Assembly: GCA_910585595.1 (NCBI GenBank)
Contig: CAJUET010000002.1
Span: 135,418 to 199,417, forward strand
DNA: 64,000 nucleotides
From: an uncultured Christensenella sp.
GTDB lineage: Bacteria; Bacillota; Clostridia; Christensenellales; Borkfalkiaceae
Direction of reading: 5' to 3'
Positions 46,307 through 62,688 of the stretch are shown here, in pieces. Below the pieces are notes generated by a model. It was not told where the DNA came from and did no database searches. It worked only from the letters and a program-made list of their open reading frames with translations. Position 1 is the first letter of the stretch. Each line of letters opens with the position of its first letter. Made by a program: the position numbers and the translations under genes.

Positions 46307-46316
46307 GGTGAACATT

Positions 46317-48284: not shown

Positions 48285-48362
48285 AATCGTGAAACTCCTT
48301 ATCGTAATTCCACGATTAGTATATGAAATTTGAAAAATTATCTCTCGTGGAGTTCCACGATA

Positions 48363-48391
48363 TTGACTTGCTACTGCAATTTTGCTATAAT
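48363..48391 (+). promoter_or_regulatory. strong sigma-70 promoter flanked by 14-bp direct repeats (operator candidates)
   Basis: TTGACT, 17 nt, TATAAT. GGAGTTCCACGATA occurs at 48349-48362 and again at 48399-48412. A third core copy, TTCCACGAT, is at 48308-48316. Confidence 0.65.
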
Positions 48392-48415
48392 ATTTCACGG
48401 AGTTCCACGATAAAT

Positions 48416-48975: not shown

Positions 48976-50259
48976 ATGTTTAGAAAAATTCAAAAACCAA
49001 TGTCCGTATTCACAATCAGTATATTACTGTTTTTAATCGTGTTAAGCACTTGTACTACTTTTCTACAAATTCATACAGCACAGGCTCAAACATTTGAGCA
49101 ACATATTCCTACCTTTGGTCTATACTGCAAAGATGAAACCATTATACAATCTGGCACTGTTAAATACGATTTATCGGATGCCGAAACCATTGCGCAAGGA
49201 AAAAGCTCAATACAATCAAGTTATCAAATTGCGGCAGTTAATCGCACAGTTGAATTTGTAATACCTTTTATATCGTCAGCAGAAAATGCCCCACTCTTTT
49301 CTATTAAAGCAAATGAGCAAAAAATCGACTGCTCAATTTGGTACGGAAACCCCTTCTTTTCGTCCGATGAAGATACAGACTTTGAAAGCCTTATTGACGA
49401 TACATATTCAACCGATATTGATAAAGCCATAAAAGGAACGCTCTATACAATAACACCAGACAATGAAACGATTTCGATTGAATTATCTTTTGCCGAAAAC
49501 AAACGAAGTAGTTTCATATATGAAACCTCTAATCAATTATCGGCATCAAGTTCAGCCAGCGGAACTTACACTTGGACTTTGAAAAACGCTTTTATAAAAC
49601 CCGAATATAAATTTTTCATACTTGGCGAAAATTCCAACCACTCTTTTTCATGCAGCAGTGAATATCAAACGGAAACAATAACTTGCAAAGATTACATTGA
49701 TCGTCAATATGAATACTTGAAAGAACTTTACGATGAATACGGGATTGCCGTTGATTTTCTCTATTCAATGTTTAATCTGCTATTGCAAAACAAGCAAAGC
49801 GTAGTTTATGACGATTTATTCTTTAATTCTATAAATACACAAAGATATAACGTATATAAGTTTTCTATACAGCTCGATACGACTACACTCATCAATTACG
49901 AACTTCCTGTAAACATACAACGCAATTTTGCTTTTACTCCAACGATATATTTGCTTGAGCAAAAGAATTTAGGAAACTACCCTATATTCTACATTGCTGA
50001 ACTAAACAATGAAATACCCTATATCATTGAATCAAGCGTCAAATTCATTAAAGACGGACTTACATATAGTGCCGAAACCGCCGACGATTATTACTTCGTT
50101 TTCAGTTCGTCCGAAAAGCCCCAAAGTGCCACGTTCCCTACTAACAGCAACGATAATAAGGCTTTGATTATCTGCTGTTCTGTTATAGGTGGAATCGCAT
50201 TTATCGCCTTAATTGTTCTGATAGGAATTGTAATACATCAAAAGGTTAAACACCGCTAA
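48976..50259 (+). CDS. secreted protein with N-terminal signal/anchor and C-terminal TM anchor, unknown function
   Basis: 427 aa. N-terminal hydrophobic segment ending AQAQ. C-terminal LIICCSVIGGIAFIALIVLIGIVI followed by HQKVKHR. Confidence 0.65.
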   Translation: MFRKIQKPMSVFTISILLFLIVLSTCTTFLQIHTAQAQTFEQHIPTFGLYCKDETIIQSGTVKYDLSDAETIAQGKSSIQSSYQIAAVNRTVEFVIPFISSAENAPLFSIKANEQKIDCSIWYGNPFFSSDEDTDFESLIDDTYSTDIDKAIKGTLYTITPDNETISIELSFAENKRSSFIYETSNQLSASSSASGTYTWTLKNAFIKPEYKFFILGENSNHSFSCSSEYQTETITCKDYIDRQYEYLKELYDEYGIAVDFLYSMFNLLLQNKQSVVYDDLFFNSINTQRYNVYKFSIQLDTTTLINYELPVNIQRNFAFTPTIYLLEQKNLGNYPIFYIAELNNEIPYIIESSVKFIKDGLTYSAETADDYYFVFSSSEKPQSATFPTNSNDNKALIICCSVIGGIAFIALIVLIGIVIHQKVKHR

Positions 50260-50276
50260 AAACCGCTAACTGACAG

Positions 50277-50340
50277 CAGGGCGTGTGCTTGTCTTGATAC
50301 GAGAGCGGCGCTGGCGCGCCGCCGACAAGCACACGCCCTG
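50277..50340. repeat. GC-rich nested hairpin
   Basis: Perfect 17-bp arms CAGGGCGTGTGCTTGTC / GACAAGCACACGCCCTG enclosing an inner 7-bp hairpin GCGGCGC-TGGC-GCGCCGC. No flanking T-run. Confidence 0.8.
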
Positions 50341-50374
50341 CGCAACCCAACCCAACGAAAACCATAGTAACAAA

Positions 50375-50447
50375 TAGCGACGGCGAAAATTCGGGCGACA
50401 CGCGCAGGCTTTCCGTGTCCGCCCGAATTTTTCTTTCGCCGTCGCTA
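50375..50447. repeat. long imperfect hairpin (about 28 bp paired) abutting the rep stop codon
   Basis: TAGCGACGGCGAAAATTCGGGCGACACG - loop - CGTGTCCGCCCGAATTTTTCTTTCGCCGTCGCTA. One 1-nt and one 5-nt bulge by hand pairing. Confidence 0.8.
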
Positions 50448-50449
50448 CA

Positions 50450-51484
50450 TTAGTTACTTTTACGCATTTGCGCTATTACTTCGGGGCTTACCCTTCCCAT
50501 ATATAAGCCCTCGTCCCAGCAGTTGAAATCGTCGAATAATAGTAGTTTCTTATCCTCTTGCCCTATTGTGCATACAATGTCCTCGTCCATTATGTCGGAT
50601 ATAAAGTATTGGTACAGCCCCTTGCTGTACACTATTTTTTCGCCTGTCTTTTCTATATATTTCATTAAATAAGCGAGTGCCTCGCCATATAAGTTTGGAT
50701 CTAATACTTTGAAATCGTTGCGCCCGAATCGTTCCGCAAAATAGGTATTTAGCGTTATCGTCTGCATGGTATGCGACACCGTGCTGAAATCGGTCTTTTC
50801 CACAAGTTCGCCGACCATAGCATCGTCCGGCACGTTGAATAAACCGTGAAAATGTAACCGCTTCTTTTCGGGTGATCGTTCCCATACGCCCATATACTTC
50901 CATCCCTGTCTATATGCAAGCAATGATAATTTGTTCTTCAGCTTCTTTTTGAATGTTTCTTCGGTGTGCTTTTTGTCATCGTATGTAAACGTGCAGAAGT
51001 AATTAAACTTTGCCAAATTAGCTTTTCGCACCATACGAACACGCCTACTCACTATGTTCCTATGCTTCCTTTCAAACCCTAAATCGACATACCACTTTAA
51101 CTGCTCTATACTGTCAAAATACGCCTCCATACCTTCCATAACTTTGAAATGCCGCTGCGCTCTCGGCAAGTCAATGTATTTGTTATACAATTCTTCAAAC
51201 AACTCCTTCCGCGTCATCTGACGTTCTCGTAGCGGCTGTGTATTGGCTTCTAACGGCTCGTTTGGTGATTCCGCTATTACTTGCTCGTCAGCTTCGCCCC
51301 CGTCGCTTTCGCAAGAAATTAAAGGCTCCGGCGCCTTATCGGTGTCGAAGCCTTCTTCTTTTGCTTCTGCGACGGTTATTACTTCCTCTATAGGTTTCGG
51401 ACGGTAACGCTGTGGACGTTCCGTATGCGGTATCGCTATGTAATGCGATCCGTCAAAATACACTTTGGTTTCTCCGAATGGCAT
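50450..51484 (-). CDS. rolling-circle replication initiator (HUH endonuclease, two-tyrosine type)
   Basis: Motif I YFCTFTYDD, motif II RLHFHGLFNV (HUH), motif III LAYLMKYIEK (Y-x3-Y as in phiX174 A / gokushovirus VP4-type Reps). Confidence 0.75.
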   Translation of the reverse strand: MPFGETKVYFDGSHYIAIPHTERPQRYRPKPIEEVITVAEAKEEGFDTDKAPEPLISCESDGGEADEQVIAESPNEPLEANTQPLRERQMTRKELFEELYNKYIDLPRAQRHFKVMEGMEAYFDSIEQLKWYVDLGFERKHRNIVSRRVRMVRKANLAKFNYFCTFTYDDKKHTEETFKKKLKNKLSLLAYRQGWKYMGVWERSPEKKRLHFHGLFNVPDDAMVGELVEKTDFSTVSHTMQTITLNTYFAERFGRNDFKVLDPNLYGEALAYLMKYIEKTGEKIVYSKGLYQYFISDIMDEDIVCTIGQEDKKLLLFDDFNCWDEGLYMGRVSPEVIAQMRKSN

Positions 51485-51518
51485 TTTGACTTTAACGAGG
51501 GATAACCGTCTTATAAAG

Positions 51519-51731
51519 TTATTTACGCCGCTTGTTATACTCGGGCGTATTCTTATAAAGTAGAGCGTACTCGAAATTGCCGTGTACTTTCATTGCTCGC
51601 TTGAGCGCCTTTTTATCACCGTTCTCGGCGGCTTCACGCAATTCATTCTCGCTGTAATGATAGCCACTCTTGAGTTCGCTTACGGAATATTTATGCGCCA
51701 ATTTCTTGTGCCTTAAAGTGAAAAATCCCAC
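51519..51731 (-). CDS. hypothetical basic protein (70 aa)
   Basis: GTG start with AAGGAGGT RBS embedded in the end of the upstream gene. Confidence 0.45.
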   Translation of the reverse strand: MGFFTLRHKKLAHKYSVSELKSGYHYSENELREAAENGDKKALKRAMKVHGNFEYALLYKNTPEYNKRRK

Positions 51732-51733
51732 GC

Positions 51734-52306
51734 TTACTTACCTCCTTTTTTTAATTGTCTTTGTTGCTTTTTATCAAGTTTGCGCTCACGCTTCGCCTGC
51801 TTTTGGACAAGTCTTTGTTCTCGTATAGCTTGCTTTTTAGCAAGCTTACGCTCACGCTTCAACTGTTTTTTGGCAAGTTTCTGTTCTCGTATAGCCTGCT
51901 TTTTAGCAAGCTTAAGCTCGCGCTTCGCTTGCTTTTGGGCAAGTCTTTGTTCTCGTATAGCCTGCTTATTAGCGAGTTTGGGTTCGCGCTTCTTTTGCAA
52001 CTTATCGAGCTTGGCTTGCTTTTTGGCGAGTTTATTATTTCGCTTTTCTTGCTTCTTTTCAAGTTTCAAACGGCGCTTTTCTTGCTTGACTTTCACTTGC
52101 TGTTCTTTGAGCTTTTTCTTTTGATACTGCCGATCTTCTTTGTCGATTTTCTTAAACGATTTCTTCATATTCTTAAAAATATAATTGAGTATTTTATCGT
52201 TGAATTTGTCCGGCACGAAGTCGGCGGTATCGAGCGTGTGCGAAAAGGTTTCGTAATACTTAATAAGGCAAGCGTTTATGAGTTTGTTTTTGTTGTAGTT
52301 AATCAT
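51734..52306 (-). CDS. lysine/glutamine-rich coiled-coil repeat protein (190 aa)
   Basis: C-terminal half is 22-aa repeats LAKKQAIREQ(K/R)LA(K/Q)KQ(L/A)KRE(R/L)K. ATGA overlap with the Zot-like gene. Confidence 0.65.
   Translation of the reverse strand: MINYNKNKLINACLIKYYETFSHTLDTADFVPDKFNDKILNYIFKNMKKSFKKIDKEDRQYQKKKLKEQQVKVKQEKRRLKLEKKQEKRNNKLAKKQAKLDKLQKKREPKLANKQAIREQRLAQKQAKRELKLAKKQAIREQKLAKKQLKRERKLAKKQAIREQRLVQKQAKRERKLDKKQQRQLKKGGK
51779..51976. repeat. three exact-phase 66-bp tandem repeats (coding), with degenerate copies up to about 52090
   Basis: Units at 51779-51844, 51845-51910 and 51911-51976 each end in AGC(A/G)AG. They lie inside ORF 51734..52306. Confidence 0.85.
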
Positions 52307-53124
52307 GCGACTTTACCTCTCTTTTGATAGTATCCTTCGGGCAACTCGTCGTCGTTTTCTTCGAGATAACGGATATAGCCTTCAAGCGTTTGCTCGGTAG
52401 GCTCTGACTGCTGATAATCGAAGTCCTCATTAAAGTGTCCTTGATAGAACTTCGGCTTGCAGCATTGACTATCATAGCATTCAAATACATTGTAGTCCGC
52501 TGTAACCACTTCTACCGTATAGCAACTCTTATCCTGTTTGCCACTCGACATATACTTGTCGAATAAGCTGCTGTTCTCTATACGGCGAATATGCCACGTC
52601 AGGCGGCAAGGTCTGCCGAAATCGTTGTATTCTTTGTCTAACTTTATTATCTCTATGAACTGCGACAATTCCCGAATGTTGACGTCGATTAGCATTGGTC
52701 TTTGCGTGTCAAGATAAACGTCCAAATCGTTATGCCCGTGCTGTTCATACCATCTACTTTGCCAATCCGGAAAATACATAGATAATCTGCTATTAAGGTA
52801 CTTTTGCGCTTCCGTAATGCAGATAACCTCATAAGGTAAATTAAAATGCGTTTGCACAAACGGATTGGCAAAGCCCAGACGGTAAGGGTTAATTCGGCGG
52901 CTATATCGGGGGCTGTACCGATAGCGCTTAAACGTCATATCGTAGTTAGCCGAAACACAGTGAATCGGCACAGTCCCCAAGTTTTCAAAGCCGCTATTTC
53001 TTTTCCCTATAATCTCACGAGCCATAGTCCGATTACGAACCTTGTCAAACGCATAACCGTTTGCAACGTGCGTCATAAAACAGGTCTTGCCCGTTCGCGG
53101 CGGTGCGAAAATTATCGTTATCAT
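52303..53124 (-). CDS. Zot/gpI-like P-loop NTPase (filamentous-phage assembly ATPase family), no TM segment seen
   Basis: Walker A IIFAPPRTGKT at the extreme N-terminus. VICITEAQKYLNSR (Walker B position). WYEQHGHNDLDVYLDTQRPMLIDVNIRELS parallels M13 gpI WFLHARKLGWDIIFLVQDLSIVDKQARSAL. Confidence 0.65.
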   Translation of the reverse strand: MITIIFAPPRTGKTCFMTHVANGYAFDKVRNRTMAREIIGKRNSGFENLGTVPIHCVSANYDMTFKRYRYSPRYSRRINPYRLGFANPFVQTHFNLPYEVICITEAQKYLNSRLSMYFPDWQSRWYEQHGHNDLDVYLDTQRPMLIDVNIRELSQFIEIIKLDKEYNDFGRPCRLTWHIRRIENSSLFDKYMSSGKQDKSCYTVEVVTADYNVFECYDSQCCKPKFYQGHFNEDFDYQQSEPTEQTLEGYIRYLEENDDELPEGYYQKRGKVA

Positions 53125-53128
53125 AGGC

Positions 53129-55510
53129 TTACCTTAAAACGTACAAATCCCACATAGTCATCATTTCAATGTAGAAACCTGCATTGTCAGACCATTCGAC
53201 AGTTAATACGCCGTCTTTCTTGCACGATATGGTAATAGTAAATGTGTTTGGTGTTCCGTAATCCACAACACCGAGCGTTGCCGAGAACGGCGTAGTGCTT
53301 GTCAATACCTTTTCGCCCGGATAGTGGTCGAAACTCATACCGCTGCTGTCGAGCGCAAACCATTCGTTACCGTCGAACTGCCAGCCGTAACAGCCGTTGC
53401 CATCAGACGAGTTATACCAGAAACTATTGTTACCGTCATCACTAATGTTGGCTTGCATAAAGTTGGCGGTTATCTTGATTTTATCGCCTTTCTTCAAGCC
53501 GCTCACTTGCAAATCTACACTATGTGTATTGCTGTCGCCGTAAACGTATTGCTGTTCGTTAGATAAAAGTTTCCATGTCCCGTGTTTAGCCGTAAAGGTT
53601 GTGTTAGCGGTAATCTTATAAGTTGCGACGTTCACGATATTCGTTCCGTCAACCGTCCAGCCCTTGAAAGTATCGCTACTGAACGTAGGCGCGGTTGCAT
53701 AACCGCCGCTTTGTACCTGTTGCGTCGAAAGGGTTGTGTTGCCGTTCTTGAACGTAACCGTGAGCTTGTCAATACGGAATACGGCGTTAAAAGTAACGTT
53801 GCCCGTAATTGCGTAACTGCTTACGTTGACAGTGTTCGTTCCGTCGATAGACCAGCCGACAAACACGTAATTCGTTTTCGTCGGATCGCTCGGCTTGCTT
53901 GCATATTTCCCGTGTTCTATCGTCTGTGTAGACAGCGTTTTACCGTCGTTTTTGAATGTAACGGTATAAGTTTGAATACGGAAGATAGCGGTAAAAGTTA
54001 CGTTTTCGTTAACGATATAATTGCTTACGTCAATGGGGCTTGTACCGTCTAACGACCAACCGACGAAGATATGATTTGCCTTTGTCGGATTGCTCGGCAC
54101 GGTAGGCTTTCCATTCTTTACAACGAGTTGCGTATTGTGTGTACTGCCTTCCGCCATAAACTTGACGTCGTATTTGTAGGTGATGTCGGCAACGAAAACG
54201 GTGTCTGCCGTAATGCGGTATTCGCTTACGTCCGTCATAACGCCGTTGACTTTCCAGCCGTTGAAAACTTTATATGCCGTGCTTGCAGCGGCAGGCGCGG
54301 TTGCATAGTTGCCGCTCTTGACGGTTTCGTTTTTCAGCGTGGTATCTTCGTACTTGAACACTACCGAATACAACTTTGTGAATTTTGCCGTAAAGGTTAC
54401 GTTCTGCGTTACGGTGTAGTTTGCAAGATTGACTACGTTATTGCCGTCGAGCGTCCAACCGTCGAACACATAACCGTTCTTCGTCGGGTTAGTGGGTACG
54501 TTAACTTTTGCGTCTTTGAGTACAATTTGACTGTTATGATTTTCGCCGTCGGATATGAAGTTGACTTCGTACTTGCGCGTAACGTCGGCAACGATTTTGG
54601 TATTTGCCGTTATGCGGTAGGTGGCAAGGTCGATAGGTTCTCCGTCCACAGTCCAACCGTTGAAAATGAGATATGCGGTGGACGGCGGCGTTGCAACCGT
54701 TAAAAGACTGTTTTTGTTGACAACTTGAATGTTGTACACGCTGCCGTCGAACTCGAACGTAGCGACAACTTGTTCGCCGCTTTCTAATGAAGCGAGATAC
54801 TGTTCATAGTAACTTACCGATTTTTGCAATTCCGCAATCTTGACATTAAGAGCGTTGACTACCGCAGAATTGTTTTGCGATTGCAGAGTAAGGTCGGAAA
54901 TCTGATTATTAAGGCTTACGATTTGTGCGTTCAGTCCGTTAATTGTGCGCGTGTTCAGTTCGTTGGTTTCCTGCAACTGATTATTGAGTGATTGCAAATT
55001 GGAAATTTGTTCGTTTAACTGCGCTATTTGTCGTTCGTTCTCGTCTTTGTTTGCGGAGAGAGAAAGCACCTGATTATTGAGCGTAGCGATTTGTCCGTTC
55101 AAATCTGTGATTGTCACTTCATTGCTTGCCTTGATAGTGTTTAGTGTGTCGATTTGCGTTTGCAGAGCGGTTTTCTGTTCGTTAAGCGTTCCGATTTGCC
55201 CTTGATAATCCTTAATGCTGTTATTCAGGGCGTTGGCTTCGCTCGTGTACTGCGAGATTAAATCGTTCTGCGTAGTTATCGTATCGCGGTAACTGTTGAT
55301 GAGATTGTCGTATTCTTCCTTGTCGGTAAGAGCGGTATTGTAGCCGTCTTCGTAGGCGTTTTGAACGTCGTCCTGCGTATAAAGACCGTTGCCCGCCATA
55401 CCTTCCTTAACCTTAGACCAATTTATGATGCCCCACGTCAGCACGAAGGCGAACGCGGCGACAATGAGAATACTGAATATGATTGTTAATACTTTTTTTG
55501 TCGTTGACAT
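53129..55510 (-). CDS. N-terminally anchored protein with Asn/Gln-rich coiled coil, six Listeria-Bacteroides-type repeats and a C-terminal globular domain
   Basis: N-terminal TM helix (VLTIIFSILIVAAFAFVLTWGII). LNNQ-type heptads from about residue 90 to 240. Six ~68-aa units of pattern Y.V.F...G......V..G......P..P....Y.F.GW..DG.....Y.IT.N.TF.A.F. Confidence 0.7.
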   Translation of the reverse strand: MSTTKKVLTIIFSILIVAAFAFVLTWGIINWSKVKEGMAGNGLYTQDDVQNAYEDGYNTALTDKEEYDNLINSYRDTITTQNDLISQYTSEANALNNSIKDYQGQIGTLNEQKTALQTQIDTLNTIKASNEVTITDLNGQIATLNNQVLSLSANKDENERQIAQLNEQISNLQSLNNQLQETNELNTRTINGLNAQIVSLNNQISDLTLQSQNNSAVVNALNVKIAELQKSVSYYEQYLASLESGEQVVATFEFDGSVYNIQVVNKNSLLTVATPPSTAYLIFNGWTVDGEPIDLATYRITANTKIVADVTRKYEVNFISDGENHNSQIVLKDAKVNVPTNPTKNGYVFDGWTLDGNNVVNLANYTVTQNVTFTAKFTKLYSVVFKYEDTTLKNETVKSGNYATAPAAASTAYKVFNGWKVNGVMTDVSEYRITADTVFVADITYKYDVKFMAEGSTHNTQLVVKNGKPTVPSNPTKANHIFVGWSLDGTSPIDVSNYIVNENVTFTAIFRIQTYTVTFKNDGKTLSTQTIEHGKYASKPSDPTKTNYVFVGWSIDGTNTVNVSSYAITGNVTFNAVFRIDKLTVTFKNGNTTLSTQQVQSGGYATAPTFSSDTFKGWTVDGTNIVNVATYKITANTTFTAKHGTWKLLSNEQQYVYGDSNTHSVDLQVSGLKKGDKIKITANFMQANISDDGNNSFWYNSSDGNGCYGWQFDGNEWFALDSSGMSFDHYPGEKVLTSTTPFSATLGVVDYGTPNTFTITISCKKDGVLTVEWSDNAGFYIEMMTMWDLYVLR

Positions 55511-55522
55511 AGATAATTCTCC

Positions 55523-56050
55523 TTATAAAATTTCGATAATTTGCAAGCGCATACCGTTGTCCGAAAAGTATTGTTCCAAGAAGGACGCATTTTCGTTTCC
55601 GGTAGTCGCAAGCGTGAGTTGAGTTTTGCCGCTTAAAAATTTGACGGATATTTTCATAACCGAGCGATTTACGATTTGCCCGTCTGTATTGTAAAAGTCG
55701 AGATTGACTGTTGCATACACCGAGCCTGCTTTAATTTCGCAGTTGAGTAAAACGTAATCGTTCAGCACTACGTTGTACTTTTTGTTTTCGCCGTCGAAGT
55801 TCTCCGTTTTGAGCAAGTCTTTCTCGAAATAGTAGGTGTCCGTGTCGTCGTATAGGTCGTGATAGAAAACGACGCTCGTTGACGTGTACTTAAAACTTTC
55901 CTGTGAGAAACGGTTGCTTATGTCGATACTGCCGTTGACGTAACTTTCGGCTTTGATTTCCTTATACAGTTGCAAGCCGCAGAATACGCCGGCAACGATA
56001 AGCGCGAAGGCGAGAATATACAAAATAACCAATCCTATGATTTTCTTCAT
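55523..56050 (-). CDS. N-terminally anchored protein (175 aa), unknown
   Basis: MKKIIGLVILYILAFALIVAGVFCGL TM helix. ATGA overlap with the upstream gene. Confidence 0.6.
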   Translation of the reverse strand: MKKIIGLVILYILAFALIVAGVFCGLQLYKEIKAESYVNGSIDISNRFSQESFKYTSTSVVFYHDLYDDTDTYYFEKDLLKTENFDGENKKYNVVLNDYVLLNCEIKAGSVYATVNLDFYNTDGQIVNRSVMKISVKFLSGKTQLTLATTGNENASFLEQYFSDNGMRLQIIEIL

Positions 56051-57453
56051 ACCATCACCCCCGTAAGTTCGCCGTCGAATGCGTTTTGCAGTCCGTCGAA
56101 TGTGATTCCGCTTGATTTGTTAAGCGTTTGCAGGTTTGTACCGAACAGAGATTTTTCGAGCAAATAAACTGTCTGCGTTCCGCCACGAATGGTAAGCGTG
56201 TCGAGTTCCAAATTCTCAAAAGCGTTGTAATCCAAACCCACGATATTGATTTCCTTTTGCGTAAGATAGGTCGCGTTCAAATCGAGCGTGATATTGATTT
56301 TGGCTCTCGGAATTTCCGCGAACAGTTTTTTGGCGTCCATAGTAAGAGAAACAAAATACCCGTCGTAAACTTCGCTGTAACGGTAGGCGAAAATATCTTC
56401 GCCCCGTAATTTGCTCGTAACGTCGAGATTGTAGGTCATTCGTTCCTGCCAATAACTCGTGTCGATTTTATCTTCCGAAACGTCGTACTTTGAATTGTTG
56501 TCGATAATACCGAACATACTTTGCGTGCTGTTGCGTGCGCCGTTCTCGTCGTAATGAAATTTGAGTACCGAATACGTCTTGATAATGTCCGTAACGTCGT
56601 CTGTCTTGAATTTCTTTGTTTCATAATCGTATTCCTTGATAGAGAAAAGCGACGATAGGTCAACCGTAATGTAATAATCACCGTAACCTGCGCTGTTGGT
56701 TTTTACCGCCTGCATACACGACTGAAACAAACTGCCGTAGGTGTAGTAATAACGATTGTAAATGTCTCCGACTTTCCAGCCGATACCGAAGAAATTGCGT
56801 AGATCTCCGACGTCGCGGTCGAAATACTTGTTAAGAGAAATTGCGAACGCTCGGTCGTCGATTTTGATAATAAATTCGGTTGTGCGTTTGAGTTCGGTTG
56901 CGATACTGCCGTTTTCGTTGGTAACACCGTTCCAATTTATACCGTTGGTATAATCGTAATAATTGAAAGACTTATCGACGTAACTGTTTACGATTTTCAT
57001 AGCGTTATCATCCGTGCCGTAATAGCGGTCATTGTTTCCGAACGGGTTAATAAACTTGACGCTTGTATTGCCGTCCCACACGTCGAGCGGCAGTCCTTGA
57101 TAATCACCCAGATACTGCATACCCGTTGAGCGGTAATCCGTCGAGAGTAGGCTCGTCGTGGTAAAGTAGTTCATTTTGAGTTCTTGTAACTGTATGCCGT
57201 TGCCTTTGTCGTTACTGTAATAATTTACTTCGAGGAAATAACGGTCTTTGAGTTCGTCTTTTTCTTCTTCCGTCAGATCATCAGATTTGATTATCTCTTG
57301 GATATCCAAACCGACTTGGTTATCAATGTTGTTTACGCCTATCGTTATATCCTTCACAAAGTAGTGGTAATAGATAAAGGCGATAATAACGCACACACTG
57401 ATAACACACAAAAATACAAGGCAACAGTTGGCTATTGTTTTTAAGACCTTCAA
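56047..57453 (-). CDS. N-terminally anchored protein (468 aa), unknown
   Basis: TTG start with AAGGAGGT RBS. TM helix CCLVFLCVISVCVIIAFIYY. Tyr/Asn/Asp-rich ectodomain. Confidence 0.6.
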   Translation of the reverse strand: MKVLKTIANCCLVFLCVISVCVIIAFIYYHYFVKDITIGVNNIDNQVGLDIQEIIKSDDLTEEEKDELKDRYFLEVNYYSNDKGNGIQLQELKMNYFTTTSLLSTDYRSTGMQYLGDYQGLPLDVWDGNTSVKFINPFGNNDRYYGTDDNAMKIVNSYVDKSFNYYDYTNGINWNGVTNENGSIATELKRTTEFIIKIDDRAFAISLNKYFDRDVGDLRNFFGIGWKVGDIYNRYYYTYGSLFQSCMQAVKTNSAGYGDYYITVDLSSLFSIKEYDYETKKFKTDDVTDIIKTYSVLKFHYDENGARNSTQSMFGIIDNNSKYDVSEDKIDTSYWQERMTYNLDVTSKLRGEDIFAYRYSEVYDGYFVSLTMDAKKLFAEIPRAKINITLDLNATYLTQKEINIVGLDYNAFENLELDTLTIRGGTQTVYLLEKSLFGTNLQTLNKSSGITFDGLQNAFDGELTGVMV

Positions 57454-57480
57454 ATTTTTTGTACCTCCTTGTTAGAATAA

Positions 57481-57518
57481 AAGGCGCTAAATAAACTTTT
57501 CCGTCTAAATAGCGCCTT
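57481..57518 (-). terminator. hairpin (possible attenuator) immediately after the 52-aa ORF
   Basis: 9-bp stem AAGGCGCTA / TAGCGCCTT with a 20-nt loop, followed on the minus strand by TTATT. Confidence 0.35.
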
Positions 57519-57531
57519 CGTTGTTGGGGTT

Positions 57532-57690
57532 TTACAGTAAGCCGTTCCAGCCGAAGAAGTTGAGCATTTTGGCAAGCCAACGTAAGCCGTATGCAATCCA
57601 TTCAAAGAGTTTGGCGAGAATTGATAACGGCCACGTTCCGACCAGCACCACAAGGATTACTACAAGTAGTATCAATATCAATTTCTTCAT
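57532..57690 (-). CDS. 52-aa hydrophobic protein, candidate major coat protein (below the ORF-track cutoff)
   Basis: ATG 57690 after GAGGTG RBS. Hand translation: MKKLILILLVVILVVLVGTWPLSILAKLFEWIAYGLRWLAKMLNFFGWNGLL. Confidence 0.5.
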   Translation of the reverse strand: MKKLILILLVVILVVLVGTWPLSILAKLFEWIAYGLRWLAKMLNFFGWNGLL

Positions 57691-57705
57691 CGGAACACCT
57701 CACTA

Positions 57706-58059
57706 TTAGCGCATAAGCATTGCAAGCAAAGTCTTGTCGGAATTGCGTGCGGGCTTAACGGCGCACTCGTAAACTTCGCCCGTTTCCTTATCCACCGTGC
57801 GGACGAGAAAGCGCGTACCGGTAACGGGCTTGCCTTCGCCGTTGGTGAACTCGAAAGGTTCGGCGATGAAATCCGCCTTATCCTCGTTGCCGAACACGAT
57901 ATCCAAAACCGTGTAACCGCCTTTGTCGTTTTTATCGGGCGGAGCGATTTTGATTTTCACGTCCCTGCCGCGGACATTGCCGCAGATGAAATACTCGGAA
58001 TAGGTTTTACCCTTATACTCGAATGCGCCCTTTTCTACCTTAATGTTGTTCTTTGCCAT
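57706..58059 (-). CDS. hypothetical beta-rich protein (117 aa), positional candidate for an ssDNA-binding protein
   Basis: Immediately upstream of the small hydrophobic ORF. No motif recognised; the call rests on position only. Confidence 0.3.
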   Translation of the reverse strand: MAKNNIKVEKGAFEYKGKTYSEYFICGNVRGRDVKIKIAPPDKNDKGGYTVLDIVFGNEDKADFIAEPFEFTNGEGKPVTGTRFLVRTVDKETGEVYECAVKPARNSDKTLLAMLMR

Positions 58060-58077
58060 ACTTTCTTTACCTCCCTG

Positions 58078-58371
58078 TTATGCGGATTTCTTTCCGCCCT
58101 TTTTTACCGGCAACTTCGTGCCTTTTTCTCTGGAATACTTCTTTGCTTCCGATTTGGAAAGACCGGCGTCCATAGCCTGCTTGTAGCGGAACAGTCCGGC
58201 GTGATCGCTCTGACACTGCAAGTAACCCGAACGGAGTCCTGCTTCGTAGTCGCTCAAAGGCTGACCTTCTTTCTGTCCGTGCTGATGCACCTTTGCTCTG
58301 CGTTCCTCAACGTAACTCGCCGCACGCTTGCTGGGGGTAGTCCAACGTCTTTCCGTATTGTAATTTGCCAT
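58078..58371 (-). CDS. hypothetical basic protein (97 aa)
   Basis: Start moved to ATG 58371 (AGGAGA RBS). Lys/Arg-rich ends. Confidence 0.5.
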   Translation of the reverse strand: MANYNTERRWTTPSKRAASYVEERRAKVHQHGQKEGQPLSDYEAGLRSGYLQCQSDHAGLFRYKQAMDAGLSKSEAKKYSREKGTKLPVKKGGKKSA

Positions 58372-58543
58372 ATTCAAATCTCCTATTGATTTTAATATTG
58401 CCCGTGAAACCGATAGCACAGCTTATCTGTCAAACCGGCACTGATATGTTTACTTTGTCGATCTGTTCGTGCGTAGGCGGCCACCTTTATGAAATTCACG
58501 CTGAACACAATCGCCGTTTATTTATGCGCCGTGTAACATTCGA

Positions 58544-58795
58544 TTAGTTGAGTAGGCTTAAAATGCTCTCGTCCGGTTCGCTTCCCAAAAGAACTTGCTC
58601 GCCTTTTACAAGCGTGCCTTGCTCGTCGTAGTATCGTCTAACCAACCACAGCTCCGCATTGAAGCCACAAGCGGTCTTATAGTCGCAATACGCACTTGCT
58701 TTGTCCTCGTCGGCAAAGTATTTACTGCCGCGATTGCACTCGACACGGTAAAACTGCACGACTGCGTTCCTTTGCGCACCCTTCATCTTGCACAT
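58544..58795 (-). CDS. hypothetical protein (83 aa)
   Basis: Co-directional ORF. No family recognised. Confidence 0.45.
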   Translation of the reverse strand: MCKMKGAQRNAVVQFYRVECNRGSKYFADEDKASAYCDYKTACGFNAELWLVRRYYDEQGTLVKGEQVLLGSEPDESILSLLN

Positions 58796-58883
58796 CGTCT
58801 TTCTCCTTGCTTGATTTATTTTGTAGGCGCTCGTTCATAACCCCTACACTTATAGCCACGAAAACGGGCAAAAGTTTTCGGTC

Positions 58884-59279
58884 TTACAAAAAATTTTTGA
58901 GTTTTTTATAAATTCGTGCCAATCTATTGCTGATACTGCACACCGCAACTCCGTCGCTTTCCGCTATCTCGGACACCGTTTGTCTTTCAACGAACAAGCG
59001 ATTGAGAAGGCTTTGTTGCGTAGGTAACAGTTGCGAAATTGCTTCCTGCAATCGCTCGTTTTCCATACCGCCGAAAATCTCATCGAAATTATATTCGTCC
59101 GTATATGACGGCTCGACGTTCATTTCGGTAAGCGTTTCCAAAGAAACGTGCCTGCGAGTTTCACGGCGATTCCCGTACTTTTCTTCCTTGTCCATTTCAA
59201 TTAAAAGGTCGTAAAGCTCGTCCTCTACTTCCACAACACTTTTAGTTCCGTCCGCAAATTTGTAAGTATAAGTTTTCAT
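58884..59279 (-). CDS. sigma-70 region-4-like HTH protein (Tn916 Orf7-like small sigma/regulator)
   Basis: C-terminal LPTQQSLLNRLFVERQTVSEIAESDGVAVCSISNRLARIYKKLK resembles sigma-70 region 4. Confidence 0.6.
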   Translation of the reverse strand: MKTYTYKFADGTKSVVEVEDELYDLLIEMDKEEKYGNRRETRRHVSLETLTEMNVEPSYTDEYNFDEIFGGMENERLQEAISQLLPTQQSLLNRLFVERQTVSEIAESDGVAVCSISNRLARIYKKLKNFL

Positions 59280-59415
59280 ATTTTGACTCCTTGAATTTGA
59301 TAGTGAAATCCGCAGAGCCGAGTTTTCCGCAAACTAAAAGACGGCATAGAAACGATTGAATTTGTTTCCATTGCCGTCTTGCGGTCTGCGGATATTATTG
59401 AGTTGTTACGGCGAT

Positions 59416-59568
59416 CTACGCCGCCTTATCTTTGTTGGTTACGCTGATTTGTCCGTTGTCCGAAAAGCATATAAGCGTGGTACAGCCTTTCAATACTATC
59501 TCGACGGTTTTGCTCGATTTATCTACACGGCACACGAGCTTGCCTTGACTGTTGCGTACTTCTTCCAT
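59416..59568 (-). CDS. hypothetical small protein (50 aa)
   Basis: ATG 59568 after GGAGGA. MEEVRNSQGKLVCRVDKSSKTVEIVLKGCTTLICF... Confidence 0.45.
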   Translation of the reverse strand: MEEVRNSQGKLVCRVDKSSKTVEIVLKGCTTLICFSDNGQISVTNKDKAA

Positions 59569-59570
59569 AT

Positions 59571-59720
59571 TCAATCCTCCGATTTCTTTTCCTTTTGCCA
59601 TTTGAGAATATTCTCAAGAAACTTCTTTGCTATTGGCTCTAAAGTCGCTTTGGGTATTTTGCCGTAGTCCGGCATACCGTTGACTTGAACTTCATACGCT
59701 GGTTCTACTTTCTGTTTCAT
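59571..59720 (-). CDS. hypothetical small protein (49 aa), below the track cutoff
   Basis: ATGA overlap with the upstream HTH gene. MKQKVEPAYEVQVNGMPDYGKIPKATLEPIAKKFLENILKWQKEKKSED. Confidence 0.4.
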   Translation of the reverse strand: MKQKVEPAYEVQVNGMPDYGKIPKATLEPIAKKFLENILKWQKEKKSED

Positions 59721-60058
59721 TTGGTTACTCCTTTCAGACCGAAAGTTTTGATGATTGATTTCATCACTTCGGCATCCTTGCCATTGAGTTCGGGCAAAAG
59801 CCTTTGTAATAATTCCTGCTGTTCGTCCTTGAGATAGGACTTACCCAACCTGTAATTTTCATCTACACGAATTCCACCTCCATTGCCTTTTGAAGTGTAA
59901 ATCGGATAATCTAAAGACAATATTAAAATGTCATTGCGGATTGTTCTGTCTGTTACGTTAAACTCGAATGCCAGATTTGCAACTGTTTCAAATCTACGCA
60001 TACAAAGAACTTCCAATATGGCATTTCTTCGTTCGCTTGACGTCATATCCGATTTCAC
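59717..60058 (-). CDS. HTH (DeoR/HTH_11-like) regulator
   Basis: SSERRNAILEVLCMRRFETVANLAFEFNVTDRTIRNDILIL winged-helix pattern. Confidence 0.65.
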   Translation of the reverse strand: MKSDMTSSERRNAILEVLCMRRFETVANLAFEFNVTDRTIRNDILILSLDYPIYTSKGNGGGIRVDENYRLGKSYLKDEQQELLQRLLPELNGKDAEVMKSIIKTFGLKGVTK

Positions 60059-60143
60059 CTCCTTTCGCTTTTCTTGGCGTTATTCTAAAATTCAAATAGG
60101 AAGGTTTTTTTCCTATTAGAAAAACTTTTTTAATTTTTTTGAG

Positions 60144-60218
60144 AAAAATAAAAAGCCGCCGAGTAGCGTGCCACGCACTACTCCCATTGAGTAAATGCGC
60201 TTTGCGCTATTCGGCGGC
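60144..60218 (-). terminator. compound terminator / small structured RNA between the regulatory genes
   Basis: On the minus strand, the outer 8-bp stem GCCGCCGA / TCGGCGGC encloses two inner hairpins (GCGC-AAA-GCGC and GAGTAG...CTACTC), followed by TTTTTATTTTT. Confidence 0.5.
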
Positions 60219-60371
60219 CTCTCGTGTTATTGTAATTACTTACAAAGGTTCGGTTAAACCAATCCGATATATACAGTTCGACCTCTTGGCTTTACAATGC
60301 CTCTGTTTCAGACCGACCAAGCGTCTTGCCGTATATTGTCATAAAGACTATAAATTGTAATTTTTCTTTCG

Positions 60372-60572
60372 TTACTGCATAATTGTTTGCCCTTCGGGTG
60401 CGTAAACGTCTAATGAAACGTGCCGCCTGCTCATTACCCGTGATATTGTTACAGTACCACAGTGAGGACACTTGACTTTCGTCAAACCGTTTATGTCCCT
60501 TATCCCGATTGTCTTTTGGTGGCAGTTGACGCACACAAATGGCACGGGCTTTTCGTAGCTAAATTTTGGCAT
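60372..60572 (-). CDS. small zinc-ribbon protein (66 aa), cysteine-rich KTR-like
   Basis: Start moved to ATG 60572. CVNCHQ...17 aa...CPHCGT four-Cys ribbon. Confidence 0.55.
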   Translation of the reverse strand: MPKFSYEKPVPFVCVNCHQKTIGIRDINGLTKVKCPHCGTVTISRVMSRRHVSLDVYAPEGQTIMQ

Positions 60573-60712
60573 TATCTTTATTCTACTCCTTTTCTCTCGC
60601 CTGCAATAGATGGTATTTAGAAAACTGCCTTTATGCGGTTGAGAACTCCGGCACGGAAGTAATCTATCTTTTGCAAGTCCTATATAACAACGATTTCGGG
60701 GCAAAATCGCAG

Positions 60713-61309
60713 TTAATACATTTTAATGCAACTGACAAGAATGCCTTGTATTTCACAATTCTTTACGATAATATCCTGCATTGTCTTATTTTCCGGATGC
60801 AGCCTTATCTTGTCCTTTTCTTTGTAAAAGCGTTTTAGTGTATTTTCGCCATTGACAAGTGCAACCACTATCTCACCGTCCAGAGCTTCTTTCTGCTTGC
60901 GGATAACAAGTAAATCGCCTTTGTTTATTCCAGCATCTATCATACTGTTACCAAAGGCACGAAGCATATACATTTCGCTATTACCGAAGATCGAGCAAGG
61001 AAGCGCAAAACTTTCTTCTATATTCTCTACTTCCAAGCACGGCTCGCCACAAGCGATTTCACCGATGAGCGGAACAGTTACGGTTTCGCCACCCCACAAT
61101 TTTGCAAGTGGCGCTATGTTTCCTATATCCGTGCGTTCGATACGTCCTTCCGCCGCCAACTGCTTAATATACCGTTGCACGGTTGCCAAAGAACCGAGCT
61201 TCAGAGCGTTCATTATGTTACGAAAGCTCGGCGATATACCGTGTTGCTTTTGATACTCTACGTTGTACTCCGCTATGGCGTTTTTCGTTTCTTCGCTTAA
61301 AACTCTCAT
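60713..61309 (-). CDS. LexA-type repressor (winged HTH + S24 self-cleaving peptidase domain)
   Basis: N-terminal SFRNIMNALKLGSLATVQRYIKQL. Linker VPLIGEIACGEP with Cys-Gly at the scissile position. GNSMIDAGI (Ser) and LKRF (Lys) dyad; 198 aa. Confidence 0.8.
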   Translation of the reverse strand: MRVLSEETKNAIAEYNVEYQKQHGISPSFRNIMNALKLGSLATVQRYIKQLAAEGRIERTDIGNIAPLAKLWGGETVTVPLIGEIACGEPCLEVENIEESFALPCSIFGNSEMYMLRAFGNSMIDAGINKGDLLVIRKQKEALDGEIVVALVNGENTLKRFYKEKDKIRLHPENKTMQDIIVKNCEIQGILVSCIKMY

Positions 61310-61359
61310 TTTATATCCTTTGCATTATAACAAAACTGTCCGTTTCGTTATATAAATAG

Positions 61360-61388
61360 AGTATAGCACAAGAACCGCAATATTGCAA
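61360..61388 (-). promoter_or_regulatory. candidate promoter of the LexA-type repressor gene
   Basis: On the minus strand, TTGCAA, 17 nt, TATACT. Flanked by the inverted repeat ACTGTCCGT (61335-61343) / ACGGACAGT (61408-61416). Confidence 0.5.
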
Positions 61389-61466
61389 GTGCGCAGCGTG
61401 GCGGTTTACGGACAGTGAAAAGTTTTTTATTTAATTGTAAAAATTCTATTTACTCGATTTTGAGGA

Positions 61467-62282
61467 CTACTCCAAATCATCAAACGATATATTAGTGTAC
61501 TCAAAAGTTTGCAAATCAATAAATGCTATAATTGAATTGATAACAGCTTGCATACATTCAGCACCAAACTCTCTCAAAAGACTTTTTGAATAATACGGAA
61601 TCAATATTAAATCGTATATATCTATTATCTTTTGCTTATTACAGAACTCAAGGAATTGACTAACCTTTTGTTCAATGAGAATATCTTGAACTTTATACTT
61701 ACGCCAAACAAGCTGCGATATTTTTTCAATACCATACTCCTTAAATTCAAAGTATATGTAACTGAATTTCCGCTTTGCCCTATTATCTTTTACATAATTA
61801 CCTATCGAATATAAAGAAAGTTTATCAATGGTAGTTTCAGTCTTAATCGAACCGCCACCTATTTTTATTAGTGTTTCGACATAGCGCTTTTCATTCTTAA
61901 GTCGTCTATATTCCTTTTCAAACGTTGATTCGAGCCGATCTATGTCGGTTTGAAAAACCTCCAACCCGTTATCAATCCTTTCCTGCGCCCTAAACCTATA
62001 TTCCCTAATTTCGGTCAAATATGACTGATAGTCCAAAAATATCTGTTCAAGATCAAATTTGCTAATATATATTTTATCGGAGTAAATATAAGTAGAATAT
62101 TTTAGGCTGACACGCCGACATACAACATATTGCTCTTTATGATTTATAAGTTGAGAATTAAAAGCACAAGAGTTTTTTTCTAATGCCGATTTACTACTTT
62201 TGGGCAAGCGATTTATCAAACTATCCCAAATTAAATTGAATTTAGCTTTTCTCTTTGCCGTTATAAATTCTTCATTCGTCAT
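61467..62282 (-). CDS. hypothetical protein (271 aa) appended to dndDE
   Basis: Very AT-rich, starts 24 nt downstream of the dndE-like gene, same strand. No family recognised. Confidence 0.6.
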   Translation of the reverse strand: MTNEEFITAKRKAKFNLIWDSLINRLPKSSKSALEKNSCAFNSQLINHKEQYVVCRRVSLKYSTYIYSDKIYISKFDLEQIFLDYQSYLTEIREYRFRAQERIDNGLEVFQTDIDRLESTFEKEYRRLKNEKRYVETLIKIGGGSIKTETTIDKLSLYSIGNYVKDNRAKRKFSYIYFEFKEYGIEKISQLVWRKYKVQDILIEQKVSQFLEFCNKQKIIDIYDLILIPYYSKSLLREFGAECMQAVINSIIAFIDLQTFEYTNISFDDLE

Positions 62283-62306: not shown

Positions 62307-62687
62307 TTATATACTTTTGTCGAGATTGGCAAGGTGATTATAAAAGTTACTACCGGAATATTTATACTCTGCGTAAAGTAATTTTGCGCCCCTATCCAAA
62401 TGAGCCTTAAGATACTTCGGAAAATACTCTTCTTCGGATAAATCAAAACCATTTTTATTTACAATAAGAGTCTTAAATAAATCGTCATACTCACCTGTAA
62501 TCGTTTGACGGTTAAGCTCAAGCCCATCGGTATCAGTATTAAAACTATCCGCGTCCAACTCTGTATTGTCTCTAATTGATAGCGCTATCGCAATTTTAGC
62601 CAACGCAAACGGCTGTAAATGAATACTCGCGCTAATGTCATTGAAAACCTGCATGGTTTCTTTTGATGTTTTTAACTTAAATACCAT
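62307..62687 (-). CDS. dndE: DndE-like DNA phosphorothioation protein
   Basis: Start moved to ATG 62687, one nt after the dndD stop, with the GAGGTG RBS inside dndD. FKLKTSKETMQVFNDI...LQPFALAKIAIALSI...LNRQTITGEYDDLF resembles the DndE (DUF1832) pattern; 126 aa. Confidence 0.6.
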   Translation of the reverse strand: MVFKLKTSKETMQVFNDISASIHLQPFALAKIAIALSIRDNTELDADSFNTDTDGLELNRQTITGEYDDLFKTLIVNKNGFDLSEEEYFPKYLKAHLDRGAKLLYAEYKYSGSNFYNHLANLDKSI

Positions 62688-62688
62688 A

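Follow-up and report, generated by a model that had tools for sequence, protein, structure and literature searches.

The window analyzed in this study is a 64,000-nucleotide (nt) stretch of contig CAJUET010000002.1 (assembly GCA_910585595.1, uncultured Christensenella sp.; positions 135,418 to 199,417). A block of approximately 11.16 kilobases (kb) on its minus strand was found to have the gene content of a filamentous phage, and it is probable (roughly 0.8) that this block is an integrated temperate filamentous prophage, Tubulavirales-like and inovirus-like, in an uncultured gut Clostridia bacterium. A preliminary description of the same DNA had proposed such a prophage, and this core proposal was supported by the following results: the ATPase belonged to the Zot family; the replication protein (Rep) was of the G2P type; the block was not fixed among related genomes; and no capsid module was present. 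The element and its principal parts, with protein lengths in amino acids (aa), are as follows.

50265 to 61432, minus strand: whole inovirus-like prophage, about 11.16 kb; the homology of relatives ends on both sides
52303 to 53124, minus strand: stand-alone Zot/pI-type assembly ATPase, 273 aa, without a transmembrane segment (PHROG, PDB profile, tblastn and the Pfam Zot matches of relatives)
50450 to 51484, minus strand: HUH Rep, rolling-circle replication initiator, 344 aa, with FCTFTY, HFHGLF and YLMKY (two tyrosines) motifs (Pfam, PHROG)
50375 to 50447, minus strand: hairpin B, directly after the Rep stop codon (inverted repeat I18); candidate terminator and/or (-)-origin or packaging hairpin
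50270 to 50341, minus strand: terminal hairpin A (50276-50341) with terminal motif TGTCAG (consensus T[C/G]TCA); candidate (+)-origin, Rep recognition site or recombination site

The assembly ATPase

Profile searches had been named in the preliminary description as the check on the 273-aa protein, and they placed it in the Zot/pI family. The protein matched PHROG 197 ('Zot-like toxin') at E = 1.7e-7, and the best solved match of its family profile was PDB 2r2a (E = 5e-5), with both the Walker B and the H-x-H-x-x-x-D-x-x-x-x-T-Q block inside the alignment; the PDB title of this chain is 'Uncharacterized protein', and we take it to be the N-terminal domain of a Neisseria Zot. Moreover, over 87% of its length the protein shared 30.7% identity with the Zot annotated in Bajarodino virus 12 (tblastn E = 3e-19, blastp E = 2.9e-26). 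Pfam Zot was matched by 16 of 18 relatives at 70-90% identity (best E = 3e-6), with FtsK and HerA families not listed, and the relative P0109 carries a precomputed PF05707 match. Because these close relatives match Pfam Zot although the window protein misses the cut-off, the protein is, judged by sequence, a divergent branch of the Zot family and not a member of another family.

The maximum 19-residue Kyte-Doolittle hydropathy of the protein was 0.85, versus 1.31 at the transmembrane segment of M13 pI. A membrane-less ATPase fits the description of Sugimoto et al. 2021, in which every Firmicutes-targeted gut inovirus has a stand-alone Zot domain (PMC8530359). An AlphaFold2 (AF2) model built from an alignment of 18 close relatives was poor (predicted local distance difference test, pLDDT, 54.5), and its BFVD matches were unnamed and uninterpretable. 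The hhalign comparison of the family alignment with M13 pI covered only the Walker A region, because the alignment was too shallow.

Rep and the terminal hairpins

The Rep protein matched Pfam PF23343 (REP_ORF2-G2P) with E = 2.7e-10 and 40.9 bits, above the 27.8-bit cut-off, and PHROG 3584 and 942 (replication initiation). These matches, together with the HFH (HUH) and YLMKY motifs in the translation, confirmed the HUH Rep that had been claimed from the sequence. The protein was 53.7% identical to an open reading frame (ORF) of a human faecal contig. The two tyrosines of YLMKY resemble those of phiX174 gpA, a likeness taken as a lead only.

The intergenic region after Rep (50262-50452, 191 nt) forms two long stem-loops with a single-stranded DNA (ssDNA) fold of -68.1 kcal/mol (z = -10.6). 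Hairpin B was kept in the closer relatives. Hairpin A, which is long and GC-rich with a perfect lower stem of 18 bp, was the most conserved non-coding feature of the family. Across 38 aligned relatives, 93.7% of its cells were paired, compared with 27-53% when the pairing was slid by 1-3 columns; compensatory (both-side) changes occurred at 16 of 21 pairs, and the observed values were reached in none of 500 shuffles. In a sub-clade of three distant relatives (loci L020, L063 and L067), the hairpin architecture was retained with a wholly different lower-stem sequence. The unpaired bulge CT(T/C)GT(A)TCAA on the 3' side was nearly invariant, and this bulge (ACTTGTTCAAG / ACTTGTATCAAG) resembles the M13 origin stretch ACTCTTGTTCCAAAC, which is likewise a lead only. 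Such conservation is as expected of a cis element acting at the DNA level, which could be an origin, a packaging signal or a recombination site.

Just outside the hairpin (window 50245-50270), the sequence AGCGGTTTTT AGCGGTGTTT (phage orientation) is a short tandem repeat overlapping the final codons of the neighbouring 427-aa gene. Similar short repeats of the AGYGGTT or GGGTAA type come after the hairpin in each of L031-L033, L006 and L007; such repeats may have arisen by chance, may be left over from the target or may bind Rep. In addition, many metagenome contigs (L114-L233, for example L125, L143, L145, L159, L169, L181 and L193) start or stop in or beside hairpin A, and this could reflect either an assembly break at the inverted repeat or a branch point between junctions.

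Extent and gene content of the element

The ends of the element were placed at approximately 50265-50271 and 61432 because similarity to relatives ceases there. On the Rep side (right), DNA comparison with about 40 relatives, including L003, L024, L025 and L039, showed that similarity ceased at 50261-50281, just past hairpin 50276-50341 and the short motif T[C/G]TCA. The near-identical phages of L003 and L006 have unlike right flanks, which diverge directly after TCTCA. On the repressor side (left), similarity to L039 ceased at 61432, and upstream of the repressor gene the similarity among five relatives is confined to the promoter, the region of the palindrome and a stretch rich in A/T. The flanking genes for 271-aa and 427-aa proteins were rejected as parts of the element because neither protein had a homologue at any related locus.

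This extent is very near the 50270-61470 given in the preliminary description, and most of the other structural statements made there also stood. The ORF listing contained all of the approximately 17 close-packed minus-strand ORFs from 61309 to 50450; the ATGA overlaps of 4 nt at 56047-56050 and 52303-52306 follow from the ORF coordinates; and the motifs APPRTGKT (residues 7-14), ICITEAQ, FCTFTY, HFHGLF and YLMKY were all found in the translations. Terminase, portal, capsid, tail and lysin genes had been reported as lacking, and Pfam and PHROG scans of the block and its flanks agreed, with no such family and no packaging module just beside the block. The sole 'head scaffolding' match in PHROG was weak and fell on the coiled coil of the 793-aa protein. 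At 11.16 kb, with 17 co-oriented ORFs and without capsid, terminase or tail families, the block lies within the size and content limits used by Roux et al. 2019, namely a genome of about 5-15 kb whose genes are short and largely co-oriented. All genes of the window copy were intact and colinear with those of relatives.

Distribution, mobility and selection

Homologues of the ATPase numbered 808 (E <= 1e-3) in a collection of 5.8 billion proteins, and nearly all of them were unnamed ('hypothetical protein'). Relatives were encoded at 159 places in species-representative genomes, mostly in metagenome-assembled genomes (MAGs) of uncultured Christensenella, Christensenellaceae, Christensenellales and 'Clostridia bacterium' from mouse, human, ruminant, rabbit and chicken guts. 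Three cultured carriers were among them, Pumilibacter muris, P. intestinalis and Anaerocaecibacter muris, and the closest prophage relatives were in Christensenellales.

Dozens of loci had in common a core with the order 97-117-52-468-175-793-Zot-190-70-Rep (protein lengths in aa), and the same gene order was present in more than 50 independent loci. The flanks of these loci differed: a Y-family polymerase gene on one side and a type I restriction-modification (R-M) gene (hsdM) on the other in L003-L005; ypsA and kilA-N in L006; araC-type and sugar transport genes in L007; and other genes in L039. A block fixed and syntenic in all relatives had been named beforehand as an outcome that would speak against a prophage, and the comparison instead revealed unrelated flanks. 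Moreover, two related copies lay on separate contigs in several MAGs.

Comparison of the window copy with L003 gave ratios of nonsynonymous to synonymous substitution rates (dN/dS) of 0.02-0.16 across all nine genes compared; judged from these sequences, all of them are under strong purifying selection. The synonymous divergence (dS) ranged from 0.16 to 2.2, with 0.16-0.21 for the 97-aa and 117-aa genes and 1.0-2.2 for most others, and so wide a range indicates recombination. Mosaicism was also seen in L041 (3124-7450), whose 468-, 175- and 793-aa proteins were 95-97% identical to those of the window (53129-57453) with an ATPase just 76% identical. Taken together, the spread, the differing flanks, the double copies, the mosaicism and the dN/dS values point to a phage lineage that is alive and spreading, and speak against a relic fixed in the chromosome.

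A protein-pattern scan of IMG/VR returned no relative, and a DNA scan of IMG/VR with an 18-mer of the hairpin returned eight matches, of which one was a true relative. The group has apparently been overlooked by virus catalogues, possibly because its ATPase is without a membrane segment.

A sister group (L020 11075-12127; L021 9322-10371) carries an IS30-type DDE transposase (HTH_38 and rve domains) right after the Rep hairpin, together with an SprT-like gene, different structural genes and an ATPase approximately 73% identical. The transposase may be the integration enzyme of this sister group, and the window's group has none.

Structural-type proteins

The proteins encoded between the regulatory region and Rep, other than the ATPase, and one stem-loop among their genes are as follows.

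58078 to 58371, minus strand: 97-aa basic soluble protein, highly conserved (listed ORF 97/113 aa, 58078-58419); 48 loci, median identity 79%; dN/dS = 0.03
57706 to 58059, minus strand: 117-aa beta-rich protein with predicted beta3-alpha-beta3-alpha fold (AF2 model, pLDDT 89)
57532 to 57690, minus strand: 52-aa hydrophobic protein, candidate major coat protein (MKK, 15 hydrophobic residues, GTWPLSIL...WLAK.LNFFGWNG)
57472 to 57519, minus strand: terminator-like stem-loop and T-run after the 52-aa gene (10-bp GC-rich stem, then UUUUAUU)
56047 to 57453, minus strand: 468-aa protein with N-terminal membrane anchor, candidate minor virion or assembly protein (hydropathy segment 1-34; 51 loci)
55523 to 56050, minus strand: 175-aa protein with N-terminal membrane anchor, candidate minor virion or assembly protein (hydropathy segment 1-30; 49 loci; dN/dS = 0.03)
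53129 to 55510, minus strand: 793-aa protein with N-terminal anchor, coiled coil, about six Flg_new (InlB B-repeat-like) domains and a C-terminal domain; candidate adsorption or receptor-binding protein
51734 to 52306, minus strand: 190-aa Lys-rich protein with 11-aa (33-nt) tandem repeats (repeat families D1 and D2); its start overlaps the ATPase stop (ATGA)
51519 to 51731, minus strand: 70-aa basic soluble protein (51 loci; dN/dS = 0.02)

The 52-aa ORF was present at full length in 47 loci with 52-98% identity, had a dN/dS of 0.16 and encoded one hydrophobic segment; by analogy, its product is the best candidate for the major coat protein. The stem-loop and T-run at about 57472-57519, with an RNA fold of -25.3 kcal/mol (z = -2.6), correspond to the hairpin that the preliminary description had placed after this gene. 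Hydropathy gave a single N-terminal segment in the 52-aa protein and in each of the 468-, 175- and 793-aa proteins, and the three anchored proteins of the preliminary description were thus borne out. The 468-aa protein had no Pfam, PHROG or PDB match. The anchored proteins and the Lys-rich protein had also been described as without recognisable relatives, which proved wrong: the 793-aa protein has Listeria-Bacteroides repeat domains (Pfam Flg_new, E = 8.5e-41; PDB Internalin B B-repeat, E = 1.9e-4), and all four have homologues in dozens of related prophages. Among relatives, the 793-aa gene was the most variable, mosaic module.

The repeats claimed for the Lys-rich protein were found, as 33-nt tandem repeats. 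The N-terminal part of this protein was kept in 92 loci, and the relatives' versions are approximately 106-117 aa long; the KLAKKQAIREQ-like repeats (window 51762-52067) expand the protein to 190 aa, and their number varies.

The 117-aa protein is beta-rich, as had been stated, and its confident AF2 model showed the beta3-alpha-beta3-alpha arrangement. A gpV-like oligonucleotide-binding (OB) fold had been suggested for it, and this idea was dropped because the PDB and BFVD searches gave nothing significant and the model resembled neither gpV nor an OB-fold ssDNA-binding protein. The best PDB match was coronavirus nsp9 (E = 0.019, template-modelling (TM) score 0.28), and Bacillus subtilis SsbA gave E = 0.23; by sequence, the family profile had no PDB match. 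A role of the 117-aa protein in ssDNA binding is suggested only by the position of its gene, the same place as that of gpV in M13.

Regulatory region

The regulatory arm lies upstream of the structural-type genes and contains the following features.

61360 to 61388, minus strand: promoter TTGCAA-17-TATACT (promoter scan; conserved in an alignment of five relatives)
61327 to 61351, minus strand: palindrome ATAACAAAAC-N5-GTTTCGTTAT, candidate SOS-box-like operator (conserved in the same alignment)
60713 to 61309, minus strand: LexA/CI-type repressor, 198 aa, with S24 self-cleaving domain (Peptidase_S24 E = 4e-33; LexA_DNA_bind E = 3.3e-6)
60372 to 60572, minus strand: Zn-ribbon protein, 66 aa (Pfam; listed ORF extends to 60704)
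59717 to 60058, minus strand: HTH_11/DeoR-like protein (Pfam)
59571 to 59720, minus strand: 49-aa small ORF (ORF listing and gene calls in identical contigs)
59416 to 59601, minus strand: 61/50-aa small ORF (same evidence)
58884 to 59279, minus strand: sigma-70 region-4-like protein, 131 aa (Pfam)
58544 to 58795, minus strand: 83-aa small ORF (ORF listing and gene calls in identical contigs)

The two Pfam matches of the first gene agree with the LexA-type repressor named in the preliminary description. Its translation contains the serine motif GNSM, the lysine in TLKRF (Ser/Lys dyad) and a Cys-Gly pair where the cleavage site sits, and self-cleavage is predicted. UmuD likewise uses a Cys-Gly cleavage site.

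Evidence against the prophage reading and alternative explanations

Several observations weigh against a functional filamentous prophage. Against Pfam PF05707 (Zot), the window ATPase scored 15.1 bits (E = 0.017), under the 20.3-bit gathering threshold, and no membrane segment was found in it by hydropathy, a dedicated predictor not having been run, whereas the pI-like proteins of Roux et al. had to contain a transmembrane domain (PMC6813254 supplement). The 52-aa protein had no match to known coat families in Pfam or PHROG, and its C-terminus (NFFGWNGLL) is non-basic. The C-terminus of major coat proteins is typically basic. The 117-aa model matched nothing significantly in the PDB or BFVD (best E = 0.019 and 0.016, TM score < 0.3). 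No integrase or recombinase gene was found in the element. Attachment (att) direct repeats of at least 10 nt linking the Rep-side junction to the region 7-14 kb upstream were lacking in most of the 35 loci tested, the window included, and the few AT-rich 10-14-mer repeats that appeared in the search look like chance. Furthermore, terminal redundancy was absent from 103 fetched loci, permuted gene order from the genome loci, and circular permutation or terminal redundancy from 120 metagenome loci carrying the hairpin 18-mer, so that no circular, permuted or redundant form was seen across about 200 related loci in total. Particles, ssDNA and a circular replicative form are all without direct evidence. 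The analogy with CTXphi adds a further difficulty, since a lone prophage with a single origin at its end would yield no phage DNA without excision or a tandem copy.

Some of this would also suit a cryptic or defective inovirus-derived prophage that is stuck in the chromosome, neither excises nor forms particles, and is slowly decaying or partly domesticated: integrase, att repeats and circular contigs were not found, and the element is a single copy with an origin-like hairpin at one end. At the same site, strain-level deletion variants exist, which also count against a functional phage. In L015 (16773-17184), the deletion has removed the ATPase and 190-aa genes and the greater part of the 793-aa and 70-aa genes; in L017 (14593-14703), it runs from codon 37 of the 52-aa ORF into ypsA and takes Rep and both hairpins with it. 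The phage or a remnant was present at the site in each of the 24 contigs read for the exact 427-aa flank protein and in all those shown for the 271-aa one; no empty site was found, the exact look-ups of both flank proteins giving only contigs with the prophage or deleted versions. This constant presence is weak evidence, however, because the look-ups sample essentially one strain lineage. The window genes are all intact and colinear with relatives, the dN/dS values are low, and the family occupies many sites, often twice per genome, and a cryptic prophage is accordingly judged unlikely.

A non-viral integrative rolling-circle element of the minimal conjugative or mobilisable kind, which would have Rep as its relaxase, a P-loop protein that translocates DNA and a mating apparatus made of the anchored proteins, is very improbable. 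The low-GC island around the block does hold the conjugative-element genes ArdA, PcfK and PcfJ, no recognisable coat protein family is encoded, and the actinomycete integrative and conjugative elements (AICEs) of Actinobacteria are elements with a rolling-circle Rep and a single ATPase. However, the ATPase matches Zot and not FtsK, HerA or TraB, the genes are arranged as in an inovirus (a small hydrophobic gene and its terminator, then a large variable protein, the ATPase, Rep and the hairpins), and the block moves independently of the ArdA/Pcf genes. It is also scarcely credible that the block is dependent cargo of the tRNA-Pro-linked island. The GC drop and the tRNA-Pro at 38.2 kb are in its favour, as is the position of ypsA beside the Rep end in L006 as well; yet the neighbours of close relatives differ (hsdM type I R-M, araC-type and sugar transport genes), similarity to relatives ceases sharply at both ends, and the flank proteins are absent from other loci.

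Proposed mechanism

For a temperate filamentous prophage, a life cycle can be outlined by analogy with M13, CTXphi and lambda-type switches, with the identity of the repressor, the identity of Rep and the family membership of the ATPase as its fixed points. The repressor, at the head of a single transcription unit, has its probable binding site in the SOS-box-like palindrome that overlies its promoter. DNA damage would lead to self-cleavage of the repressor, de-repression of the phage and expression of the long operon, in which the terminator after the coat gene may boost the upstream transcripts. The two-tyrosine G2P-family Rep would nick the plus strand in the hairpin region beside its gene and start rolling-circle replication, whose ssDNA products would take on a coat of the 117-aa protein, the basic 97-aa protein or both. 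The membrane would hold the 52-aa protein in readiness, together with the N-anchored trio as candidate minor virion or assembly components, and the 793-aa protein with its variable repeats may mediate adsorption. The membrane-less Zot ATPase would probably be held at the membrane by an anchored protein, or by the 190-aa protein, which is encoded by a gene overlapping that of the ATPase, and would power extrusion through the single membrane without lysis.

The element encodes no recombinase, and for integration a host enzyme or Rep acting on the terminal hairpin is suggested, as the prophage ends exactly at this strongly conserved hairpin. A dif-like sequence was not recognised by eye, no dif model having been run, and the insertion contexts differ among genomes. 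A bolder proposal can be made, which we regard as doubtful: that hairpin A, with the bulge CTTGT(A)TCAA and T[C/G]TCA, is a dual site, both the nicking origin of Rep and a substrate for integrase-free integration and excision of the ssDNA genome by Rep or a host recombinase, and that the N-anchored trio and the membrane-less Zot ATPase form a new extrusion apparatus across a thick wall. If true, the dual site would give filamentous phages of monoderm bacteria a route of integration that has yet to be described in them.

Genomic surroundings and host

The chromosomal part of the window contains prs, pth, mfd, ileS, der, aspS and argS, and the protein cluster of mfd is named 'Clostridia bacterium'. 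The host had been called a spore-former; no sporulation gene was found among the 20 chromosomal ORFs scanned, which held housekeeping genes only, and the host is better described as an uncultured Clostridia bacterium.

The prophage sits in a low-GC island (approximately 34-46% versus approximately 50% GC) that begins at tRNA-Pro(AGG) 38202-38278. Between 38202 and 50260, the island contains genes for a BspA-type leucine-rich repeat protein (38488-39687), ArdA (41027-41578), PcfK with MutS_I (45137-46306), PcfJ (46308-47648) and YpsA/SLOG (48323-48964), and this set looks like leading-region cargo of a conjugative element. In L006 (12640-12690), ypsA lies about 200 nt from the phage end, and in the window (48976-50259) the 427-aa gene intervenes; judged from the translation, its product has an N-terminus that is signal-like and a hydrophobic C-terminal segment, and it had no family match. 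The junction beside hairpin A seems to be a spot where other DNA is gained or lost.

On the other side, a dnd (DNA phosphorothioation) cluster adjoins the prophage, with dndE at 62307-62738 and a dndD-like SMC ATPase gene at 62689-63999 that is cut by the window end. In identical contigs (L014 1-9976), the cluster goes on with dndC, dndB, an SNF2/PLD helicase gene and AAA_15/AAA_23 genes, the helicase and AAA genes being probably the restriction half of the system.

Relationship to known filamentous phages

The preliminary description presented Gram-positive filamentous phages as known from only a handful of isolates and from metagenome mining, and this claim of novelty was overstated, since gut Firmicutes inoviruses, stand-alone Zot domains and experimental secretion have all been published (PMC6813254, PMC8530359, PMC10061712). 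Roux et al. 2019 listed 60 detections for Clostridia and noted that pI is atypical in Gram-positive hosts (PMC6813254), and Sugimoto et al. 2021 described gut Clostridiales-targeted inoviruses ('Clade-1', Ino-01 to Ino-06; PMC8530359). Because gut Firmicutes inoviruses with stand-alone Zot domains are already known, the element is an added member of a known inovirus-type group and not a new element type.

By description, Ino-01 to Ino-06 and the Clostridia-associated candidate family 'Vespertilinoviridae' (PMC6813254) resemble the element in their monoderm gut Clostridia hosts, a stand-alone Zot without C-terminal membrane extension, an HUH Rep, small genes and a long variable gene after the coat gene. 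They measure 5.6-9.4 kb, against 11.2 kb for the element, which differs further in its regulatory arm of several genes with a LexA/S24 repressor at the head, in its three N-anchored proteins and in lacking a recombinase. No Christensenellales host was found in the PMC6813254 supplements. Burckhardt et al. 2023 reported that Enterocloster inoviruses undergo secretion in vitro as well as in vivo (PMC10061712), and the Enterocloster and Hungatella prophages of that study, again by description, are likewise integrated inoviruses of gut commensal Clostridia; they measure 6.5-8.5 kb, with one of 16 kb, and have direct-repeat flanks, whereas no repeats of at least 10 nt were found for the element. 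These prophages are the experimental precedent for secretion by gut commensal Clostridia.

The closest annotated phage ATPase was that of Bajarodino virus 12 (PQ006185), a 9.8-kb circular genome from rodent faeces annotated as Inoviridae: 30% identity over 237 residues, a length of about 266 aa and no membrane segment. Its genome has a tyrosine integrase, its other genes are unrelated, and BLAST found in it no homologue of the element's Rep.

Read as a circle, the element follows the plan of the Ff phages (M13, fd, f1), with Rep, hairpins, (regulators), a protein at the gpV position, a small hydrophobic coat gene with terminator, a large adsorption-type protein and a Zot/pI ATPase; Rep is of the G2P family, and the terminator follows the 52-aa gene as it follows gene VIII of M13. 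In contrast to the Ff phages, the element is without a secretin (pIV), its ATPase lacks the transmembrane and periplasmic part of pI, and it is temperate with a repressor; no sequence similarity to gpV, gpVIII, gpIII or gpVI was found in it. Propionibacterium phage B5 (Paulinoviridae), a Gram-positive isolate, likewise has a monoderm host, an ATPase candidate without a transmembrane segment and several tiny hydrophobic ORFs; unlike the element, it is 5.8 kb long with no repressor arm, and there was no significant BLAST protein similarity between the two. The B5 Orf1 gave a weak structural hint with the 117-aa model (E = 0.095, TM score 0.26).

CTXphi of Vibrio cholerae is temperate without an integrase of its own, integrates through an ssDNA hairpin on which host XerCD acts, is under SOS/LexA control and keeps the hairpin region at one end of the integrated copy. 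By analogy, the element would resemble it as a temperate, integrase-less phage with a hairpin at one end and LexA-type control. Unlike in CTXphi, no dif-like sequence was recognised, the insertion sites differ among genomes and the host is monoderm.

Conclusions

In conclusion, the features that distinguish this element are its size, the LexA-headed multi-gene arm, the lack of a recombinase, the covarying hairpin at its very end and the large Christensenellales-associated group that virus catalogues have seemingly missed. The element represents a large, almost unannotated group of filamentous prophages of gut Christensenellales and other Clostridia in mice, humans, ruminants and birds. The cultured carriers, together with the LexA-type switch, could make the exit of a filamentous phage from a monoderm cell testable, and the terminal hairpin provides a concrete DNA site for the study of replication and integration without a recombinase.

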